Assembly (NCBI GenBank): GCA_965197645.1
Contig: OZ240219.1
Span: 2,720,001 to 2,784,000, forward strand
Reading direction: 5' to 3'
Origin: Dehalococcoidia bacterium
Lineage (GTDB): Bacteria; Chloroflexota; Dehalococcoidia; Plut-88900
Length of the DNA: 64,000 nucleotides
The notes beneath the pieces are model-generated. The model was not told where the DNA came from. It did not search any database and saw only the letters and a program-made list of their open reading frames with translations. Both the position numbers and the translations under genes were made by a program. Of this stretch, positions 25,006 to 58,476 are shown piece after piece; the first letter of the stretch is position 1; each line of letters begins with the position of its first letter.

Positions 25006-26628
25006 ATGCGACCCATAGCCGAAATAGCCGAAAAATTCGGCCTGGACCCCAAGCTGGTCATCCCTTACGGGCACTACAAGGCCAAGGTTCCCCTCGAAGC
25101 CATCCACACTGGAGGCCATCGGGGTAAGCTGGTGGTCGTAACCGGCATCACGCCCACCCGGGCAGGCGAGGGCAAGACCACCACGACCGCCGGTCTAACC
25201 CAGGGCCTGGGAAAGCTGGGCAAGAACGTCGCGGCGACGCTGAGGGAGCCTTCCCTCGGCCCTATCTTCGGCATCAAAGGGGGCGGCACGGGCGGCGGCA
25301 AGGCACTGATCCTACCCGAGGACGAGATCAACGTCCATTTCACCGGAGATGCCCACGCCGTCGGCTCGGCCCATAATCTGCTGTCTTCGCTGGCGGACAA
25401 CGCGGTTCAACGGGGCCAAATCGAGGGGATGGAGGCGGCGGGGCTCACCTGGCGCCGGGTAACCGACGTCGAGGACCGCGCCCTGCGCTCCATCATGACC
25501 GGCATCGGAGGAACCCCGAACGCTCCGGTGCGAGAGACTGGCTTCGACATCGTCACCGCGTCCGAGATCATGGCCGTGCTGGCGTTATCCTGGGACCTGG
25601 AGAACTTGAGGTCCCGCCTGAAACGAATAGTGGTCGGGTTCACCCGGGACGGCACTCCGGTAACCGCCGAGGATGTCAACGCCGTAGGCTCGATGATGTC
25701 CCTCTTGCGGTACGCCATCCAACCCAACCTCGTCCAGACCGGCGAGGGCCAGCCGGTGCTGGTGCACACCGGGCCTTTCGGTAACATAGCGCACGGTTGC
25801 AGCTCGGTGGTAGCCGACAGGCTGGCCCTGGGCTACGCCGACTACGTCCTCACCGAGGCTGGCTTCGGCGCCGACCTGGGATTCGAGAAGTTCATGCACA
25901 TCAAGGCCCGGTTCAATCAGCTGGAACCCCATGCCGCCGTGCTGGTGGCATCGGTCAGGGCGCTGAAGTCCCATGGCGGCGTCCGGGTGAAAGAGCTGGG
26001 CGTTCCAAATGCCGATGCGGTCCGAAAGGGCACGCCTAACCTGGAGCACCTCATCGGCGTGATCCGCTCATTCGGTCTGCCGGTCGTCGTGGCCATCAAC
26101 GAATTCCCCACCGATACACCCGATGAGATAGCCGCGGTCAAGGATGCAGCCGAGGGCGCCGGCGTGTACGCCGCCGTCGAAAGCCGCGGATTCACGGAGG
26201 GCGGGGCTGGTATGACCGACCTGGCGGAAGCTGTCATCGGCGCAACGGCCGGCTCCCCTCCCGATATCTCCTACCTATACCCGGAGGAAGCCCCTATAGA
26301 GGACAAGGTATCCGCCCTGGCCCGCAACGTCTACGCCGCAGATGACGCAGCCTGGAGCGCTCCGGCCAAGCGCCGGCTGAAGGGTTACGAGGAACTGGGG
26401 TGGGGAAAGCTGCCCGTCTGCATGGCGAAGACCCACCTCTCCATCTCCCATAACCCCAGGCTCAAGGGCAAACCTTCCGGCTACACCTTCGAGGTATCGG
26501 ACGTTCGGGCCTCTCCAGGCGCCGGGTTCATCTATCCCCTGGCCGGCGACATGGTGACGATGCCAGGCCTGCCGGGTACCCCCAGGGCGCTGGATGTAGA
26601 CGAGGCGGGCAACATCCTGGGCCTGTAG
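25006..26628 (+). CDS. fhs: Formate--tetrahydrofolate ligase
   Basis: TPT.AGEGKTTT, LREPSLGP.FGIKGG, HFTGD, GPFGNIAHGCSS, TEAGFGADLG.EKF, CMAKT, TMPGLP. Confidence 0.96.
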   Translation: MRPIAEIAEKFGLDPKLVIPYGHYKAKVPLEAIHTGGHRGKLVVVTGITPTRAGEGKTTTTAGLTQGLGKLGKNVAATLREPSLGPIFGIKGGGTGGGKALILPEDEINVHFTGDAHAVGSAHNLLSSLADNAVQRGQIEGMEAAGLTWRRVTDVEDRALRSIMTGIGGTPNAPVRETGFDIVTASEIMAVLALSWDLENLRSRLKRIVVGFTRDGTPVTAEDVNAVGSMMSLLRYAIQPNLVQTGEGQPVLVHTGPFGNIAHGCSSVVADRLALGYADYVLTEAGFGADLGFEKFMHIKARFNQLEPHAAVLVASVRALKSHGGVRVKELGVPNADAVRKGTPNLEHLIGVIRSFGLPVVVAINEFPTDTPDEIAAVKDAAEGAGVYAAVESRGFTEGGAGMTDLAEAVIGATAGSPPDISYLYPEEAPIEDKVSALARNVYAADDAAWSAPAKRRLKGYEELGWGKLPVCMAKTHLSISHNPRLKGKPSGYTFEVSDVRASPGAGFIYPLAGDMVTMPGLPGTPRALDVDEAGNILGL

Positions 26629-26630
26629 CG

Positions 26631-27257
26631 CTAGCCGGACTTGCCGACTACGGCGAATCCGTACTCCCGGGAAGCGTCCTCCAGCCAGCGGGCCAGGTAG
26701 TCGGCGAAACTGCGTCTCACGATAATATCGAAGGACGCCGTACCGTCTTCATCCTTAAGGGGACGTATTACCGCCGCCGTCTTGGCAAAGTTGGACTGGG
26801 CGCACAGGCCCGGCCCGAACACCCGGGGATGAAGGTCCAGGGAGCAGCCCTTGGAGAGCGCCTCTCGTGCGTTCCGGCCTCGAAGATTGATGACCGTCTG
26901 GCCGCCGCTCAGGTCGACAAGGGCGTAGAACCGGTCGCCCAGTGCGTTTCGAAGCGCCTCCTCTACGCCCGCCTGCTCGTCAGCGCCCGTCAGCAACAGC
27001 CACTCGTTGGGCCCCAGCCACAGGGCCGCAACCCGATCGCTTTCAGATACCACATTGGGCTCGATGGGCAGCCGTGCACCGGTTGCGGCCTCCACAGCCT
27101 CCAGGAAAGCAACGTCGGCGGGGTCGACTCTAAGGTTCAGATGTCCCAGAAAGGGGCGCTCGGAGAGCTGTACCCCGGCGCCGGCAGACTGGACCACGCC
27201 TTCGTGCCGAGCCATGAACTCCACCAGTGGCGACTCCAGGCGAGGGCCGTCAGTCAT
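26631..27257 (-). CDS. soxG: Sarcosine oxidase subunit gamma
   Basis: LWLGPNEWLL, KGCSLDLHPR.F, VRRSFADY. Start MTDGPRL overlaps the soxA stop. Confidence 0.93.
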   Translation of the reverse strand: MTDGPRLESPLVEFMARHEGVVQSAGAGVQLSERPFLGHLNLRVDPADVAFLEAVEAATGARLPIEPNVVSESDRVAALWLGPNEWLLLTGADEQAGVEEALRNALGDRFYALVDLSGGQTVINLRGRNAREALSKGCSLDLHPRVFGPGLCAQSNFAKTAAVIRPLKDEDGTASFDIIVRRSFADYLARWLEDASREYGFAVVGKSG

Positions 27258-30200
27258 CCTGCCGTTTCCTGTCCGGATCGTAGAACACCGGGCTGGCGAC
27301 AACCGCCGGAACGGCAGGGCCGTTCCCCTCGGATACGTACACCAGATCGCCCATGCGAGAGCGTCCGCCTTTGATGAGCGCCAAGGCGATCGAACGGCCC
27401 AGATAGGCGCTGTAGTAGGTAGAGGCAACGTGCCCTATCATGGGCACCGGCGCCGCACCGTTGGGGTCTTCGATCACCTGGCCTCCGTCGGGAAGCACCT
27501 CGCTGGGATTTTCCGTCAGAAGGCCCACCATCTGCTTCCGGTCCCATCTCACGGAATCGGGCCTGGACAGCGAGCGCTTGCCCAGAAAGTCCTTGCCCTT
27601 TGCTACTATCCAGTCCATGCCCAGGTCTATCGGATGAACCGATCCATCGGTGTCCTGGCCGACTATGATGAAGGCCTTCTCCGCCCTCAACTCGTGCATC
27701 GATTCGGTGCCGTAGGGCGCTATGCCCAGCTCTTCGCCTGCTTCGATAATCGACTCCCACACGTAGTGGCCGTAGTTGGCGTTGACGTTTACCTCGAAGG
27801 AGAGCTCCCCGGTGAAACTCACCCGGAAGACCCGTGCCGGGACGCCGGCCACCGTACCTTCTCGGAAGGACATGAATGGGAAGGCGTCGCGAGAGAAGTC
27901 TATGTCATCGCACAGCTTGGTAATCAGCCGCCTGCTGTTGGGGCCGACTATCGACATAGTGGCGAACTGATCGGTAACCGAGGTGAGATAGACCTTCAGC
28001 TCCGGCCACTCAGTCTGCAGCCACCTCTCCATCCACGACATCACGTTGGCCGCGCCGCCGGTGGTCGTATACATGAAGAAATGGTCCTCGGCGATCTTGC
28101 CCGTGACCCCATCGTCCATGACCATGCCATCCTCGCCCAACATCAGGCCGTATCGACAACGCCCAACGCCCAGCTTCTTCCAGCCGTTGGTGTAAATCCG
28201 GTTGAGGAACTCGGCGGAGTCCAGGCCCTGGATATCGATCTTGCCCAGGGTGGACTGGTCCAGCAGCCCTACGCTATTGCGGGCCGCCAGGCACTCCCGA
28301 TTGACGGCCTCGTTCATACTCTCGCCGTTCACCGGAAAGTACCAGGGCCGCTTCCACTGGCCTACGTTTTCAAAGGGAGCGCTGCGGGCTACGTGCCACG
28401 GGTGGATAGCCGTCTTTCGTACCGGGTCGGCCAGCTCACCCACGTTCCTTCCCGCGATCGCCCCCATGGTGACGGGTGTATAGGCGGGCCGGAAGGTGAT
28501 GCTTCCCACCGACTGGATCTCCTTCCCCAGGTGCTGGGCGAGAATTCCTATGCCGTTTACGTTGCCCAGCTTGCCCTGGTCTGTGCCGAAGCCCAGAGTG
28601 GTGTACCGATTGACCAGCTCCACCGAGTCGTAGCCTTCCAGGGCGGACAGCACGATGTCCGCCGCGCTCACGTCCTCCTGGAGATCAACGAACTGCTTGT
28701 GCTCTCTGGTGACCGGATGCCTGGACGGCACTCCCCACATGGCCTGGATAGGTCCCTGGTGAAACTCCGAAGTGGAAGGAGGTTCCGAGCTTACAGACCC
28801 GTCCCCGAATCCGGCGGCACGGGCAGCCTCAGCGCCGGCAACCGCTCCTTCGGCCAGGCATTGGGCCAGGGGAAATGCTCCGTTGCAAGCCCCGGCGGAC
28901 CGCTGGCCCACCACCGGCCCTTCGGGCACAAAGCAAGCGAGACCGGCATCGTAGCGGGTCGCGCCCCGGGACTGGCAGTGCAGGTGAACGGTGGGGTTCC
29001 ATCCCCCCGAGACCGCTACCAGGTCACATCGCAGCCTCCTGCTCCCGGGCTGTACCCTGCTCCCGGAAGGATCGAGCGGGGATATCTCCACGCCCGTCAC
29101 CCGCTTCTCCCCCTCCACGTCCGTAACGACGTGGCCATTGATGACCTCGATGCCCCGTTCCCGCACTTGCGAGACCAGGTCGCCAGCGGAATCGGAGCGC
29201 ACGTCCACCACAGCCCGCACGGTAATATCCGCATCCAGCATGTCTATTGCCGTCTGGTAAGCGGTATCGTTGTTGGCGAACACCACGGCTCGAGATCCCG
29301 GTTTGACACCATGTTTGTTTATGTAAACTGAAATAGCCGAGGCCTGCATCACCCCGGGACGGTCGTTGTTGGGGAACACCAGCGGCCGCTCGATGGCCCC
29401 TGCGGTCAGCACGACCTCCTTGGCGCGGACCCGCCACATCCGCTCTCGAGGCCCCCTTCTTTCTGCGGGCGGAAGGTGGTCGGTGCGCCGTTCCACGATG
29501 GCCAGGAAGTTGTGGTCGTAGTATCCGAAGACGGTGCTGCGAGGCAGCAGCCTCACCTCATCCATCGTCGAAAGCTCTTCGATGGCCGAGGCCACCCATT
29601 CCGAGGCGTGGGCGCCATCGATGAGCTCTTTGCCGGCCAGCAGGCTTCCCCCGAACTCGCTCTGTTCGTCGGCCAGGATAACCCGTGCGCCCGTTCTGCC
29701 CGCCTCCAGGGCTGCCGCCAGTCCGGCGGGCCCAGCCCCGACGACCAGAACGTCGCAGTGAGCGTTCATTCGGTCGTAGTAGTCGGGGTCCGGCTTTCGT
29801 GGAGACTCGCCGAGGCCGGCGGCCTTTCGGATGAAGGCTTCGTAGGTCTTCCACATCCCCTTGGGCCACATGAAGATCTTGTAGTAGAAGCCCGCGGGCA
29901 GGAACCGGGACAGGTGGCTGTTGACGGCGCCGATATCGTGCTCCACGCTGGGCCAGGAGTTGACGCTCCTAGCCTCGAGACCATCGTACAGCTCCACCTC
30001 GGTGGCACGAAGGTTGGGAATGGCCCGACCGCCCCGGCCGACCTGCAGAAGAGCGTTCGGCTCCTCCGCGCCGCTGCCCACAATCCCGCGAGGCCTGTGG
30101 TACTTGAAGCTTCGCCCCACCAGGTGGACCCCGTTGGCCAACAGCGCCGAGGCCACGGTGTCACCCTGATACCCTCGATACTCCTTGCCGTTGAAGCTAA

Positions 30201-30261
30201 ACCGGAGTGGCCTCTCCCGGTCTATGCGCCCGCCGGCGGCGATCCGAAAGCGCTGGGTCAC
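27250..30261 (-). CDS. soxA: Sarcosine oxidase subunit alpha
   Basis: GDT.ASALLANG, GRSFKYHRPRG, GAGPAG, GTDQGK, GcvT-like C-terminus. Confidence 0.96.
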   Translation of the reverse strand: MTQRFRIAAGGRIDRERPLRFSFNGKEYRGYQGDTVASALLANGVHLVGRSFKYHRPRGIVGSGAEEPNALLQVGRGGRAIPNLRATEVELYDGLEARSVNSWPSVEHDIGAVNSHLSRFLPAGFYYKIFMWPKGMWKTYEAFIRKAAGLGESPRKPDPDYYDRMNAHCDVLVVGAGPAGLAAALEAGRTGARVILADEQSEFGGSLLAGKELIDGAHASEWVASAIEELSTMDEVRLLPRSTVFGYYDHNFLAIVERRTDHLPPAERRGPRERMWRVRAKEVVLTAGAIERPLVFPNNDRPGVMQASAISVYINKHGVKPGSRAVVFANNDTAYQTAIDMLDADITVRAVVDVRSDSAGDLVSQVRERGIEVINGHVVTDVEGEKRVTGVEISPLDPSGSRVQPGSRRLRCDLVAVSGGWNPTVHLHCQSRGATRYDAGLACFVPEGPVVGQRSAGACNGAFPLAQCLAEGAVAGAEAARAAGFGDGSVSSEPPSTSEFHQGPIQAMWGVPSRHPVTREHKQFVDLQEDVSAADIVLSALEGYDSVELVNRYTTLGFGTDQGKLGNVNGIGILAQHLGKEIQSVGSITFRPAYTPVTMGAIAGRNVGELADPVRKTAIHPWHVARSAPFENVGQWKRPWYFPVNGESMNEAVNRECLAARNSVGLLDQSTLGKIDIQGLDSAEFLNRIYTNGWKKLGVGRCRYGLMLGEDGMVMDDGVTGKIAEDHFFMYTTTGGAANVMSWMERWLQTEWPELKVYLTSVTDQFATMSIVGPNSRRLITKLCDDIDFSRDAFPFMSFREGTVAGVPARVFRVSFTGELSFEVNVNANYGHYVWESIIEAGEELGIAPYGTESMHELRAEKAFIIVGQDTDGSVHPIDLGMDWIVAKGKDFLGKRSLSRPDSVRWDRKQMVGLLTENPSEVLPDGGQVIEDPNGAAPVPMIGHVASTYYSAYLGRSIALALIKGGRSRMGDLVYVSEGNGPAVPAVVASPVFYDPDRKRQDD

Positions 30262-30539
30262 TCGAGGCCTCCCGGCGGCGCCTGGCCGATCTTGTACACG
30301 GACTTGAACTCGTAGGTAACGGTGTCCCTCTCAGCGTTGAACCAGCGCCGGCAGCCGGCGGAGTGTACCCACTGTTCCAGCTCCCGTCCGCTGGGATTGT
30401 TACGCATGAAGAGATAGTCGGCCCACTCCACGTCGGAAAGAGCTTCAGGCTCTTTGGGCCGCACGATGTGGGCCTCGCCCCCATAGGAGAACTCGGACTC
30501 CTCCCGAGGGCCGCACCAGGGACATTCGATGAGCAGCAT
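30258..30539 (-). CDS. soxD: Sarcosine oxidase subunit delta
   Basis: MLLIECPWCGPR.E.EF.YGGEAH, W.H..GCRRWFN. Confidence 0.95.
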   Translation of the reverse strand: MLLIECPWCGPREESEFSYGGEAHIVRPKEPEALSDVEWADYLFMRNNPSGRELEQWVHSAGCRRWFNAERDTVTYEFKSVYKIGQAPPGGLE

Positions 30540-30553
30540 ATCGGCAATCTCCC

Positions 30554-31804
30554 TCAGTGGGCCACCGCGGCTGCGCCGTGCTCGTCTATCAGGTATCCCG
30601 TAGTGAACCTGTCCAGGTTGAAAGACTCGTTGAGACGATGGGGCTGATCGTTGGCGATGGTATGGGCGAACACCCAGCCCGACCCGGGCGTGGCTTTGAA
30701 TCCGCCGGTGCCCCATCCGCAGTTGAAGTACAACCCTTTGACGTGGGTCTTGCCGATTATGGGGCTGGCGTCGGGACAGATATCCACGGTGCCGGCCCAT
30801 TGTCGCAGCATGCGGAGGCGGCTGAACATGGGGAACAGCTCCACCACGGCCTCCATGGTCCCCTCGACTACCGAGAAGCTGCCTCGCATGGCGTAACCCT
30901 TGTAGGAATCGATGCCGGCGCCGATGATCAGCTCGCCCTTGTCGGTCTGGCTTACGTAGGCGTGTACGGCGTTGGACATCACCACTGTGTCCAGGACCGG
31001 CTTCACGGGTTCGGAGACCATGGCCTGCAACGGGTGGCTTTCGATGGGCAGCCGGACATCGGCCATCGAGGCCAGGACGCTGGAGTTGCCGGCGACCACC
31101 ACCGCCACCTTCTTTGCCTTGATGAATCCCCTCGATGTTTCCACGCCCACGACGTGATCGCCCTCGCGTCTTATGCCGGTCACCTCGCAGTTCTGGATTA
31201 TGTCGACTCCCCGGGCGTCGGCGCCCCGTGCGAACCCCCAGGCCACGGCGTCATGTCGGGCAGTACCGCCCCGTCTCTGGAAGGATGCCCCAAGAACCGG
31301 GTACCGGGAATCGGGCGACGTATTCATTATCGGCACCAGATCCTTGACCTGCCGTGCGTTGAGAAACTCCGCATCGATCCCGTTAAGCCGGTTGGAGTTC
31401 ACCCGCCGTTTCGTGTCCCTCACCTCCTGAAGATTGTGCACCAGGTTCAGCACCCCTCGCTGGCTGAACATCAGGTTGAAGTTGAGCTCCTGGCTCAGCC
31501 CTTCCCACAGCTTCATCGACCATTCGTACAAATGAGAGGTCTCGTCCCAGAGGTAGTTGGACCGGATGATGGTGGTGTTCCGGCCTACGCTGCCACCACC
31601 AATGTATCCCTTCTCCAGCACGGCAACGTTGGTTATGCCGTGCTCCTTGGCCAGGTAGTAGGCCGTCGCCAGCCCATGGCCCCCGGCCCCAACGATGATG
31701 ACCTCGTACTCTTCTTTAGGCTGGGGATTCCGCCATGCCCTGGGCCACTCTTCGTGGTGGCTGAAGCTGTGGCGGATCAGTTCTAGGAGTGAGTAATTGC
31801 CCAT
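30554..31804 (-). CDS. soxB: Sarcosine oxidase subunit beta
   Basis: [51 protein letters not shown]. Confidence 0.96.
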
Positions 31805-54979: not shown

Positions 54980-55055
54980 GTCCCTGTAGCTCAGTGGATA
55001 GAGCAACTGCCTTCTAAGCAGTAGGTCGTGGGTTCGAATCCCACCGGGGACGCCA
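54980..55055 (+). tRNA. tRNA-Arg(UCU)
   Basis: Acceptor stem GTCCCTG/CGGGGAC, anticodon arm ACTGC-CTTCTAA-GCAGT, GTTCGAATC, encoded CCA. Confidence 0.97.
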
Positions 55056-55061
55056 TTTTGA

Positions 55062-55171
55062 TACGTGTGTGTGTTACAATCCGAGCAACGAGCGGAAACG
55101 GCAACCTGACAGGAGGTACGTGTGTGTGTTACAATCCGAGCAACGAGCGGAAACGGCAACCTGACAGGAGG
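55062..55171 (+). repeat. Exact 55-bp tandem duplication containing a -10 box and RBS
   Basis: TACGTGTGTGTGTTACAATCCGAGCAACGAGCGGAAACGGCAACCTGACAGGAGG at 55062-55116 and again at 55117-55171. Confidence 0.97.
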
Positions 55172-55176
55172 GTGGT

Positions 55177-55731
55177 ATGACTACAGGCTCTCTCAACAAG
55201 CTGATAGCCCTGGACCCCAGGGGCGATACCGGCCCCGCCGAGTCGATTTCCATGGCCCCCAGGCCCGACTCGCTGGACGGAAAGCGCATCGGCCTGCTCC
55301 ACGATCAGCGGCTCAACGGCGACAATCTTCTGTGGATGGTCGCCGACCTGATCAAAGAGCAGTACGAGACCGGTGAGGTCAACTTCTGGGCCAGGCCCAA
55401 CATATCGGATATCTCCCCACCGGACCTCATGGCGGAGATGGCCGAAAAGGCCGACGTCAGCCTGATAGCGATCGGGGACTGAGGGTCCTGCAGCACGTGC
55501 TGTATGCACGACGCGCTCACCCTCGAAGACATGGGCATCCCCACTGCGGTAATCATAAGCGACCAGTTCATACCGGGCGTGCAGGAGATATCCAAATCTC
55601 GCGGCGCCCCCGATTACCCCTACGTGGTGGTCAAGCACCCCATAGGCAGCCTGGACGAGGATACCCTGAAGGAACGGGCGAAAGACGCCCTGCCCCAGGT
55701 GTTGGATATCCTTCTCAACGGCAACAAGTAA
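55177..55731 (+). CDS. UGSC-family selenoprotein (Sec at TGA 55480-55482, residue 102; 184 aa)
   Basis: Track ORFs 55177..55482 and 55504..55731 are in the same frame. Read-through gives AIGD-U-GSCSTCCMHDA...E..GIPT. A hairpin CGTGC-TGTAT-GCACG follows. Confidence 0.9.
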
Positions 55732-55823
55732 TCGCGGACTGTGGTTCCGATGAAGCCGTGGTGGAGTCGGAGCCGCTGAATGACTACGGAATGGGAAGTG
55801 CTCCTTCAGCAAGGAGGTTGTAG

Positions 55824-56666
55824 ATGAAGCCCATAGACTACGTGTCGCTACTCGATTCCTACTACCAGAGCCAGGGGTTTCCTTCCTACAAGTGGTCGGT
55901 GTTCCGGACCACGACCTGGGCGCCGTTTGAGAAGCCGCTGAGCCAGGCCAAGGTGGCGCTGCTCTGCTCTTCGGGGATGTCACGCAGGGACCAGGAACCC
56001 TTCGACCGCCAGGCCAGAAGCGAGCTGAGCTACCGCGAGATCCACAAGGACACTCCCTCCGAAGACCTGGTCATAAACTACGACTACTACGACCACAGTG
56101 ACGCCGACCGGGACCCGAACGTCCTACTCCCTCTGGACAGATTTCGAGAGCTGGAGCAGGAGGGGCACATAGGAGAACTGGCGGAAATTAACTACGGACT
56201 CGGCATGGGGAGAATGTACAAGCGTACCGCTCTCCAGACCCAACTGGCCGCCGAGATTGCCAGAAAGGTCAAGCAGGCCAAGGTCGACGTCCTATTCTGT
56301 GTACCTGCCTGACCGCTCGACCACCAGTCCGTTGGACTGCTGGCGAGAGTAGTTGAAGAGGTGGGCGTGAGCACGGTTTACGTAGGATCGGTCAGGGACA
56401 TGATGGCACAGGTGAAACCGCCCCGTCCGGTGTTCGTCAACTTCCCCCTGGGGCACCAGTGTGGCAAGCCCTTCGATAGAGATCTCCAGATGGGCATCAT
56501 CAAGGATGCTCTCGGCACGCTGACCACGCTCGACGAGCCGGGCCGGATGACGGACCTGCCCTACGAGTGGGGCGAGGAGTTCACCTACGAGATGGGCGGA
56601 GGCGAGCTGCCTGCCGATCAGCAACCACCGGGTCGAGAAAAGGCCGCTCAGGGCGTACCCGGCTAA
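55824..56666 (+). CDS. GrdB/PrdB-like (reductase selenoprotein B family) selenoprotein (Sec at TGA 56310-56312, residue 163; 280 aa)
   Basis: Track ORFs 55824..56312 and 56361..56666 are in frame. KPLSQAKVAL, YDH.DADRDPN...PLDR..EL..EG.IG, VPA-U-PLDHQSVGL.AR..E..G.STV, PPR..FV.FPLGH..G.P. SECIS-like hairpin CAGTCC-GTT-GGACTG. Confidence 0.88.
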
Positions 56667-56955
56667 CTCTTCCCGGCCTGAACCGACGAGTAGTTCGTAA
56701 GCCCCAAGGGTGCCACCTGTGCCCACTAGTCGGAGAATGACCGCTCAGTGTTGCGTTAACATCCAGGGGTCCTTCTGGGACTCTTCATCAGCATCGCTAT
56801 CGCCCAGAGCGAGAATCTCAAGGTGCTGTGCTGGCCGTGTCGGAGAAACGTCCGGCCGGGTTCAGAGTCTGGTAAGATGGTGTTTTCAACACCATCCTCA
56901 CAGCCGTTGACAGACCTCATCGGTACGGCCCCATAATGGGGTGCTAGGAGCGAAC

Positions 56956-58041
56956 ATGGCAGATGCAAACTCTCCGTCCAACGCCTTCGAGCTACCGGAC
57001 ACTATCCAGGCTATTGAGTTCTACTACGAACAGGGCCTCACCGATGGTCTGCCCGTAATCCCACCCACAGAAGAGCGGGTGCTCCAGTTCCTCGATGCGG
57101 CGGGAGTGGAGCCCACCGAAGTCCTGGGCACCAGGCCCAGCCGCAACTGGGTAATCACCGCCGACAAGGTCGCCATCAACGCCATCATGGCCGGCTGCCT
57201 CCCAGAGTATGCCCCCGTAGTGGTGGCCTCGATGAGGGCCTTGATGCGCCCCGAGTTCAACGCCTCCGCCATCTCCGAGACCGCCGGCACCTCCGCTCCG
57301 ATGATCATGGTCAACGGGCCCATCCGCCACGAGCTAGATATCAACTCCCGCTGGAATCTATTCGGGCCCGGCTGGCGCGCCAACGCCACCATCGGCCGCG
57401 CCCTCCGGCTGGTCCTCATCAATGTCTGCAACCAGGTGCCAGGTATCAGGGACAAGTCCACCTTTGGTCATCCGGGGCGGTACACCTCCTGTATCGCCGA
57501 GAACGAGGAGGCCAGCCCATGGCCTCCTCACCACGTCGACAACGGGTACTCCATCGATTCCAATACCGTCAGCCTGTTCCCCGTGTTTCCTCCCATGGAG
57601 ATATACAACCAATCGGACCACCAGCCCGAGCAGGTATTGGAGAGCTTGTGCCACATCATGGCCGCCGATGCCAACTGTGAGGGCGAAGTGCTGCTCATTC
57701 TCAGTCCCCAGCACGCCAAGACCATAGCCGCCACAGGGTGGAGCAAAGACCAGGTGCGGGACTACATGGTAGGCAGGATCGCCGAACTGTATCCCAAACT
57801 GTCCTTGCAGCCCATGCAGAGCGACCCCGGCGCAGACGCCCCGGATCCTGCGGCGGCGGAGGAGCCGGCCCAAGAAGGCGAGAGACCCTGGGCCAACGTC
57901 GGCTACTTGGGCCCCATCCAGTCCGAGGGTATCACCATTCTGGTAGCCGGCGGCGAAGGCGGCGGCCACTCGTCCATACTGCCCAGCTGGGGCTTTGCCA
58001 ACGCCGACGCCCGTTGGGTCATCGAGCCTGTTGTGGTTTGA
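56956..58041 (+). CDS. Uncharacterised protein of a family usually encoded beside UGSC proteins
   Basis: GLTDGLPVIPPT, KVAINAIMAGC.PEY, VNGP, GPGWRANATIGRALRL, GHPGRY, AENEE.SPW, VAGG. ATG follows AGGAG. Confidence 0.8.
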   Translation: MADANSPSNAFELPDTIQAIEFYYEQGLTDGLPVIPPTEERVLQFLDAAGVEPTEVLGTRPSRNWVITADKVAINAIMAGCLPEYAPVVVASMRALMRPEFNASAISETAGTSAPMIMVNGPIRHELDINSRWNLFGPGWRANATIGRALRLVLINVCNQVPGIRDKSTFGHPGRYTSCIAENEEASPWPPHHVDNGYSIDSNTVSLFPVFPPMEIYNQSDHQPEQVLESLCHIMAADANCEGEVLLILSPQHAKTIAATGWSKDQVRDYMVGRIAELYPKLSLQPMQSDPGADAPDPAAAEEPAQEGERPWANVGYLGPIQSEGITILVAGGEGGGHSSILPSWGFANADARWVIEPVVV

Positions 58042-58044
58042 GCT

Positions 58045-58476
58045 TTGGATTGTCGAACGGTCGTCTATCTACTGTCCTGCGTAGGGCAGAAACAGCCGGC
58101 TCCCGCGCCCGCTAGAGACCTGTACACCTCTCCCTGGTTCCACAAGGCCAGCACTTATGCGGATAGAACGGGTAAGCCTTGGTTCATACTATCCGCCAAG
58201 TATGGCCTAGTTCACCCCGATGAGACGATCGCACCTTACGACCTCACCCTGAACACCATGGCGGTGTCGGGCCGTCGCCAATGGACGAGTAGAGTACTCA
58301 CGCAGTTGGAGCCGCATCTGGACGGCATCGAGTCCGTCGTGTTCCTGGCCGGCCAACGCTACCGCGAGTTCCTGGAGCCATCATTGCAAGATCGTGGTCT
58401 GGTCGTTTCCGTTCCGATGGAGGGCTTAAGAATCGGCGAGCAGCTGAGGTGGTTGACCGAGGAGCTTCATGGCTGA
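58045..58476 (+). CDS. DUF6884-like protein
   Basis: L.SC...K.....A.DLY.S.WF, W.ILSAKYGL, PYD.TL, LAG..Y, P.EGL.IG.Q..WL. Confidence 0.82.
   Translation: MDCRTVVYLLSCVGQKQPAPAPARDLYTSPWFHKASTYADRTGKPWFILSAKYGLVHPDETIAPYDLTLNTMAVSGRRQWTSRVLTQLEPHLDGIESVVFLAGQRYREFLEPSLQDRGLVVSVPMEGLRIGEQLRWLTEELHG

Follow-up and report, generated by a model that had tools for sequence, protein, structure and literature searches.

Behind a tRNA-Arg gene in a 64,000-nucleotide (nt) stretch of a Dehalococcoidia genome (the window, whose positions we use throughout unless they are prefixed C1, for the genome contig) lie genes for a UGSC-family protein, a stand-alone protein resembling PrdB of D-proline reductase, and a protein with a DGLP..PPT motif (the DGLP protein). 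We conclude that the locus holds two predicted selenoprotein genes and is probably a recent cluster, specific to this lineage, of two separate systems, one formed by UGSC with DGLP and the other by the PrdB-like protein, which belongs to a clade with the motif U-P-L-D-H (UxxD, where U is selenocysteine, Sec). An earlier note on this DNA had proposed that the three genes form one distinct Sec-dependent system in which the UGSC protein and its partner supply the functions of missing Grd or Prd subunits. The functional link between UGSC and DGLP stands, whereas a conserved three-gene system replacing Grd/Prd subunits is not supported, as the trio was found at none of the other loci examined and the UGSC gene is a recent duplicate, to judge by its sequence.

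When the in-frame TGA codons are read through, four short open reading frames (ORFs) become two genes, and both TGAs are in frame at the motifs that the earlier note had given. Each has a single TGA, in the context I-G-D-U-G-S-C-S-T-C-C for the UGSC gene (D-U-G-S-C being residues 101-105) and V-P-A-U-P-L-D-H-Q for the PrdB-like gene. The DGLP gene that was said to follow is also in place (Table 1), contains DGLPVIPPT and has no internal stop. The family assignments held as well. The UGSC protein, read through, passes both NCBIfam NF041046 (142.5 against a cut-off of 125 bits) and Pfam PF24696 (182 against 25 bits), and carries the U-G-S-C family motif followed by an extra C-C that is common to its own clade. 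The second protein is PrdB-like and stays below all NCBIfam cut-offs: it matches TIGR04483 (PrdB) across the TGA, over residues 29-250 and with Sec at the same position, at a score of 166.5 against 300, and TIGR01918 (GrdB/GrdF/GrdH) at 48.7 against 65.45, with a length of 280 residues against about 430. Its motif is U-P-L-D, not the U-x-x-C of PrdB. For the DGLP protein, which matched no Pfam or NCBIfam family, the assignment relies on an A-x-N-x-x-M-A-G-C block and on its linkage and fusion to UGSC.

Structure gave little more. Sequence searches of solved structures, with the PrdB-like protein and with all three alignments, returned no credible relative, the sole match at E<0.001 being a de novo designed repeat protein. 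The PrdB-like model (predicted local distance difference test score, pLDDT, 90.5) matched generic alpha/beta folds only (best Z 8.3, root mean square deviation (rmsd) 3.5, 137 residues aligned), and the DGLP model (pLDDT 88.8) had no structural match at Z≥8.

Both in-frame TGA codons very likely encode Sec. For the PrdB-like gene we examined the top 80 out of 183 genome matches and the top 80 out of 280 metagenome matches; the search patterns behind them did not contain the Sec motif. Of the 80 genome loci, 73 have a TGA codon at the aligned position and 7 have Cys, and U-P-L-D-H was found in 76 of the 80 metagenome loci, the other four being unscorable. Full-length protein homologues have Cys at this position in six of seven cases and Trp in one, presumably a mistranslated TGA. 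Among UGSC database representatives the Sec position is occupied by Cys in 143 of 150 (Ser in four, Gly in one, gaps in two). The earlier note had proposed a search for such Cys/Sec pairing, and the outcome is positive for both families. It had also described coding-like sequence on either side of each TGA; compared with four orthologues, both halves of the PrdB-like gene show mainly synonymous change (22 synonymous against 8 non-synonymous codons 3' of the TGA), a pattern that points to purifying selection on both.

A hairpin resembling a Sec insertion sequence (SECIS) follows each TGA. The 6-bp stem of the PrdB-like gene keeps a mean of 5.6 of its 6 pairs in 117 distinct TGA homologues, against 3.75 in synonymous shuffles and a maximum of 4.01 in 200 of them, the shuffle being uniform over synonymous codons and ignoring codon bias. 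One pair is T-A in 79 homologues and A-T in 32, a two-sided change. The seven Cys forms average 4.86 pairs against 3.77 when shuffled (maximum 4.71), which means that forms without the TGA can have the stem too. The loop G at +19 was discounted as evidence, because a Val/Ala codon forces a G there. The hairpin of the UGSC gene occurs at about the same register in 31 of 31 listed UGSC loci, as determined by folding alone and without a shuffle control. The genome has selA, selB, selD (selD itself with a TGA) and tRNA-Sec(TCA), that is, all the components that the earlier note had listed to be searched for. From these observations we infer Sec insertion at both TGAs.

The conserved unit is UGSC with DGLP, which are near-obligate partners. 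This genome has four UGSC genes, one of them fused to a DGLP domain (C1:2251577-2253241), and seven DGLP genes. The two families co-occur in 14 of 14 cases among 26 related genomes (one DGLP match being a contig-end fragment), and among 301 Chloroflexota genomes DGLP is found in 33 of the 33 with UGSC above the cut-off, and UGSC in 33 of the 37 with DGLP. In the sister genus, 27 of 28 UGSC copies lie at most 5 kb from a DGLP gene, and 11 of the 18 UGSC representatives longer than 260 residues are fused to DGLP. The genomic record supports a functional link between the two. The fusion was published in 2008 (PMC2398784, Fig. S1A), with the partner called 'Unknown_1'; by eye, our DGLP protein shares with it the block A-[VI]-N-x-x-M-A-G-C-x-P-E-Y, including the Cys highlighted there, and differs in being encoded by a separate gene. 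The accessible text of that paper reports the fusion alone, without a function or a genome-wide linkage count. Other domains are also met. The UGSC representative P0305 carries a fused thioredoxin-reductase-like domain; in a member of the family a thioredoxin-reductase-like gene (L158:3455-4288) lies directly upstream of DGLP-UGSC, both below the TIGR01292 cut-off. In 7 of the 150 representatives (P0248, P0251, P0255, P0271, P0317, P0322 and P0326) a NifU-like CxxC domain stands ahead of UGSC or is fused to it, and the domain is also present at one Chloroflexota UGSC locus (L248:5334-5657).

The PrdB-like protein keeps different company. The UxxD forms make up one branch (support 86 in a quick tree) inside a stand-alone UxxC group, and come from several phyla. 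All 41 UxxD rows have D166 and R130, and all but one have Y132 and R134 (40 of 41); position 166 is Cys in all 17 non-UxxD rows. In a co-occurrence sample of 50 of the 68 non-Dehalococcoidia genomes behind UxxD loci, GrdE or PrdA was found in two. From 64 genomes of the phylum with a PrdB-like match we dropped seven that had only a weak match of GrdB length; of the remaining 57, all with a short PrdB-like gene, 8 have GrdE or PrdA, 13 have UGSC and 41 have none of GrdE, PrdA, UGSC and DGLP. Because UxxD proteins rarely occur together with PrdA or GrdE, database names such as 'D-proline reductase PrdB' are probably wrong for them. Compared with PrdB proper, the protein lacks the resolving Cys and an adjoining PrdA. 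It has the C-terminal Sec domain in common with GrdB/GrdF/GrdH and with FarB, which also lacks the CxxC cysteines (PMC10838667, from the portion accessible), and differs from them in lacking an N-terminal part of about 200 residues and an adjoining GrdE or FarE.

In keeping with the earlier note, GrdA, GrdC, GrdE and PrdA genes were not found in the window, all genome-wide matches to these families falling outside it; Grd genes do occur elsewhere in the genome. GrdA and GrdC are above cut-off at C1:257-260 kb, and there are three full-length GrdB genes with a TGA (scores 450-510) and six GrdE-like genes, two of which (C1:529-532 kb) have no adjoining GrdB. The three GrdB proteins read T-U-G-T-G-T-R-S-G and miss the later cysteines, as is reported for FarB. 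GrdD (NF040747) did not turn up in the genome, whose completeness is 94%. About 17 kb downstream of the trio, outside the window (C1:2793471-2794286), the genome encodes another short, stand-alone PrdB-like selenoprotein; it reads U-P-V-C-H, is followed by a similar SECIS-like stem and has neither UGSC nor DGLP beside it.

Conservation of the three-gene arrangement across lineages, which the earlier note had put forward for testing, was not borne out. We ran UGSC, DGLP, GrdE, GrdA and GrdC profiles on the loci around PrdB-like genes, with the window locus as positive control, where all three genes were detected. None of the five families appeared at any of 80 genome, 29 phylum and 80 metagenome loci, and neither these loci nor the window has a PrdA/GrdE-type partner. 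The reach of this comparison is limited by the flanks: among the 80 genome loci, 66 had at least 1.5 kb and 48 at least 5 kb on both sides, the phylum loci had flanks of up to 1.5 kb, and 35 of the 80 metagenome loci had at least 600 nt on both sides. A phylum locus and a genome locus share the same sequence. In eight of nine sister-genus genomes, 50 kb or more separate the PrdB-like orthologue, 83-88% identical to ours, from any DGLP gene, and in the ninth the two are on different contigs; the distance to any UGSC gene is 134 kb or more in seven, with UGSC on another contig in the other two. Two arrangements in the relative G288 were discounted as linkage, unrelated genes lying between: in one, 14 kb separate UGSC/DGLP and a short PrdB-like gene, and in the other, at a different locus, about 6 kb separate UGSC/DGLP and a Grd cluster. 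What does adjoin PrdB-like genes is lineage-specific. A crude ORF caller gave 32 ORFs for acyl-CoA dehydrogenase, 27 for O-methyltransferase and 15 for enoyl-CoA hydratase, besides smaller groups of S-adenosylmethionine (SAM) methyltransferase, nitronate monooxygenase and rhodanese genes, and these neighbours pointed to no substrate. In deltaproteobacterial relatives (L056-L086, L173-L241), the UxxD gene often lies between acyl-CoA dehydrogenase and O-methyltransferase genes.

The history of the UGSC gene is in line with a late assembly. The gene is 95% identical in DNA to a copy at C1:827152 that lies upstream of an argJ-like gene, and the two are sisters in the tree (support 100/99); in at least four relatives, judged by eye from the motif, a UGSC gene of the same type precedes this argJ-like gene. 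The trio looks recently assembled behind the tRNA-Arg gene, and is likely a recent, lineage-specific local cluster rather than one new conserved reductase. Between the tRNA and the UGSC gene lies a perfect 55-nt tandem duplication, which may be an assembly artefact. Each copy has a TG-n-TACAAT -10-like element and an AGGAGG, the repeat unit resembles by eye the region upstream of the parent UGSC copy, and the repeat junction yields a sigma-70-like -35/-10 pair (55106-55135, promoter scan) ahead of the UGSC gene. The UGSC copy would have been duplicated behind the tRNA together with its -10 element and ribosome-binding site, and the PrdB-like gene, placed between the two genes of the pair, is now likely transcribed with it.

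Several observations weigh against two separate systems. L047-L055, the closest nine of the genome loci, correspond to the sister-genus genomes and are therefore not independent evidence, and many of the sampled genomes are kin and incomplete metagenome-assembled genomes (MAGs). The cluster is stable between close strains: DNA contigs from two other studies have the same order, either from UGSC to DGLP (55617-57399) or from the PrdB-like gene to DGLP (55886-57399). One contig from an RNA library spans the 3' end of the UGSC gene and the whole PrdB-like gene (55641-56707). UGSC occurs somewhere in 32 of the 50 UxxD genomes, a count without a base-rate control, and this is the main result on that side. 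Within our own reading, the kinship assumed between the UGSC and PrdB Sec domains has a weak signal (the profiles align Sec on Sec at an HHalign probability of 46-56%, E 1-2e-4, and UGSC matches TIGR04483 at E 0.008), and the link to thioredoxin reductase rests on the two cases above.

These observations could be taken to mean that the three proteins form one Sec-dependent reductase or relay, gathered into an operon in this lineage, in which UGSC (with its U-G-S-C-S-T-C-C motif) and DGLP take over the Sec adduct that the UxxD protein cannot resolve by itself, and thioredoxin reductase recycles UGSC-DGLP. We regard this as unlikely. In its favour, the genes are co-oriented and were probably brought together from distant sites, their order is kept in strains of other studies, the RNA contig bridges two of them, the UxxD clade misses the resolving Cys, and UGSC is found in most UxxD genomes. 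However, without a base rate from comparable genomes that use Sec, the co-occurrence may reflect a shared lifestyle; no UGSC turned up in the other 18 of the 50, including one complete chromosome with the Cys form; in the phylum sample, 20 of the 33 genomes with UGSC lack a short PrdB-like gene; and the linkage was seen at none of the other loci examined. Longer fused forms of the PrdB-like N-terminal half were not found among 291 candidates either, although this is weak evidence. In four RNA runs of one study, contigs cover the UGSC and PrdB-like genes and leave the upstream DUF6391 gene uncovered. Such contigs cannot prove a single transcript. The DGLP gene is represented in these runs by short, low-depth pieces only, and no listed contig bridges 56853-57092, a gap that proves nothing.

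UGSC with DGLP could also be, rather than a reductase, an iron-sulfur (Fe-S) or other metal enzyme on a scaffold like that of class I fumarate hydratase, with the UGSC Sec/Cys and Cys81 of DGLP as ligands. In a Foldseek search with the DGLP model, 15 of the 15 rows listed to rank 20 are class I fumarate hydratases (best E 2.5e-3), 7xky alone among the ten best structural matches covers the greater part of the chain (Z 5.2, rmsd 5.2, 179 residues aligned), and the NifU-like domain would fit. Yet the TM-scores by query length are 0.24-0.28 for the four best-scoring kinds of row, the Z is under the tool's stated background, the DGLP profile aligns to fumarase alpha at an HHalign probability of 0.4%, PF05681 has no match in 110 DGLP members, and only Cys81 is broadly kept (6 of 8 distant fused homologues, against 3 of 8 for Cys179). 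A NifU-like profile, built from six of its own seven matches, gave no match in this genome. Class I fumarate hydratase (PF05681) occurs in 8 and UGSC/DGLP in 14 of the 26 related genomes, with no genome having both, an exclusion that probably reflects kinship, since 12 of the 14 belong to one family. On balance, we find such an enzyme rather improbable. An additional substrate-specific B subunit for the Grd system of the genome, pairing with the orphan GrdE-like genes and passing its adduct to GrdA and GrdC, is a still more doubtful role for the PrdB-like protein. The genome does have the GrdA, GrdC, GrdB and GrdE-like genes for it, but GrdE or PrdA accompanies few UxxD or short PrdB-like genes in the two samples described above, Grd genes were found near none of the PrdB-like loci examined, and GrdD was not found. 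Finally, the TGAs could be true stops and the genes pseudogenes or pairs of small proteins. Gene callers do split the genes, and most database homologues of the PrdB-like gene end at about 162 residues; the TGA/Cys pairing, the selection on both sides, the hairpins and the complete Sec machinery make this explanation scarcely credible.

With two separate systems as the preferred reading, the first would be a two-subunit selenoenzyme. UGSC would contribute the Sec nucleophile, carried by a small domain that is probably a relative of the PrdB/GrdB Sec domain, and the DGLP protein may be the substrate-binding subunit, by analogy with the role of GrdE/PrdA for GrdB/PrdB. The Sec adduct would be resolved by the Cys of U-G-S-C and the pair re-reduced via thioredoxin reductase. 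In GrdB-type proteins the Sec attacks a polarised bond, with the help of a pyruvoyl Schiff base for glycine and sarcosine (PMC10838667, PMC13188914, in the parts accessible). The UxxD protein, in the second system, would act without a pyruvoyl subunit: it may bind an anionic small molecule through the clade-specific Arg130 and Arg134, and Sec163 would attack a bond that is already activated. Because Asp replaces the resolving Cys, an outside thiol would be needed to release the adduct.

In the accessible parts of the literature, UGSC proteins are listed as selenoproteins of unknown function (PMC1976440, PMC13188914), and a 2026 review counts them among largely uncharacterised families (PMC13188914). 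Our UGSC protein is the same as this family (the 'UGSC-containing protein' of PMC1976440 and PMC2398784), with nothing essential different. PrdB with U-x-x-C is among the abundant marine selenoproteins (PMC1088965, PMC2398784). In ocean surveys, UGSC and PrdB-like proteins both rank with the most abundant families of selenoproteins, at 255 and 235 sequences (PMC2398784, Table 2). Like the marine 'Proline reductase PrdB' of the Sargasso Sea (PMC1088965), the Global Ocean Sampling (GOS) data (PMC2398784) and Olavius (PMC1976440), as far as the accessible text describes it, our protein is a short PrdB-like selenoprotein of a kind abundant in marine microbes. It differs from the accessible survey tables in having U-P-L-D-H in place of U-x-x-C, and is further set against the survey PrdB by an N-terminal Y-x7-Y-x3-G-F-P-x-Y-x-W segment and M-G-R-x-Y-x-R. 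We found no description of the UxxD clade or the trio in the literature searched, most subscription journals and the supplements of the 2026 review being outside its scope. The UxxD variant is apparently undescribed, while UGSC and its fusion to DGLP are already published and the partner is unexplained. UGSC is best studied together with its near-obligate DGLP partner, and hidden under the PrdB-like label is a UxxD clade that spans several phyla and is seldom accompanied by PrdA or GrdE. If the relay were true, the Stickland reductases would have a widespread counterpart that does without a pyruvoyl group and whose genes mostly lie scattered, and the operon of this sponge-associated lineage would be a natural place to reconstitute it.

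Table 1 Features of the locus and Grd-type sites in the genome
Feature	Position	Strand	Remark
tRNA-Arg(TCT)	54980..55055	+	ARAGORN; gene cluster begins right after
Perfect 55-nt tandem duplication	55062..55171	+	Repeat search and promoter scan
Gene 1, UGSC-family selenoprotein (predicted)	55177..55731	+	184 aa, Sec102
Gene 1 in-frame TGA	55480..55482	+	Predicted Sec102
Gene 1 SECIS-like hairpin	55496..55510	+	5-bp stem, 5-nt loop; folding
Gene 2, stand-alone PrdB-like selenoprotein (predicted)	55824..56666	+	280 aa, Sec163; U-P-L-D-H (UxxD) clade
Gene 2 in-frame TGA	56310..56312	+	Predicted Sec163
Gene 2 SECIS-like hairpin	56325..56339	+	6-bp stem, 3-nt loop; starts 13 nt past TGA
Gene 3, DGLP..PPT protein	56956..58041	+	361 aa; UGSC partner; 'Unknown_1' of PMC2398784 Fig. 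S1A (accessible part)
Grd-type gene sites in genome	C1:253742-259836, 401042-403678, 529591-532216, 2854763-2857409

The earlier note had also pointed to sarcosine and creatine-like catabolism in the same window and considered a methylated amine plausible as substrate. The sarcosine oxidase genes are present, as a soxBDAG-type cluster (25006-31804) that adjoins a formate-tetrahydrofolate ligase gene, whereas the 'creatine-like' gene encodes an M24 hydrolase below all cut-offs. We dropped the methylamine link, as the sox genes encode an oxidase and lie about 23 kb away on the opposite strand, and nothing found ties the locus to a methylated amine. Directly 3' of the DGLP gene is a DUF6884 (YaaA-like) gene (58045-58476), which varies between strains: it is absent from contigs of two runs, where 58043 is joined to 58561 via 69 other letters. 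The closest named relatives of the genome are Dehalococcoidia MAGs, and close strains are present in sponge metatranscriptomes.

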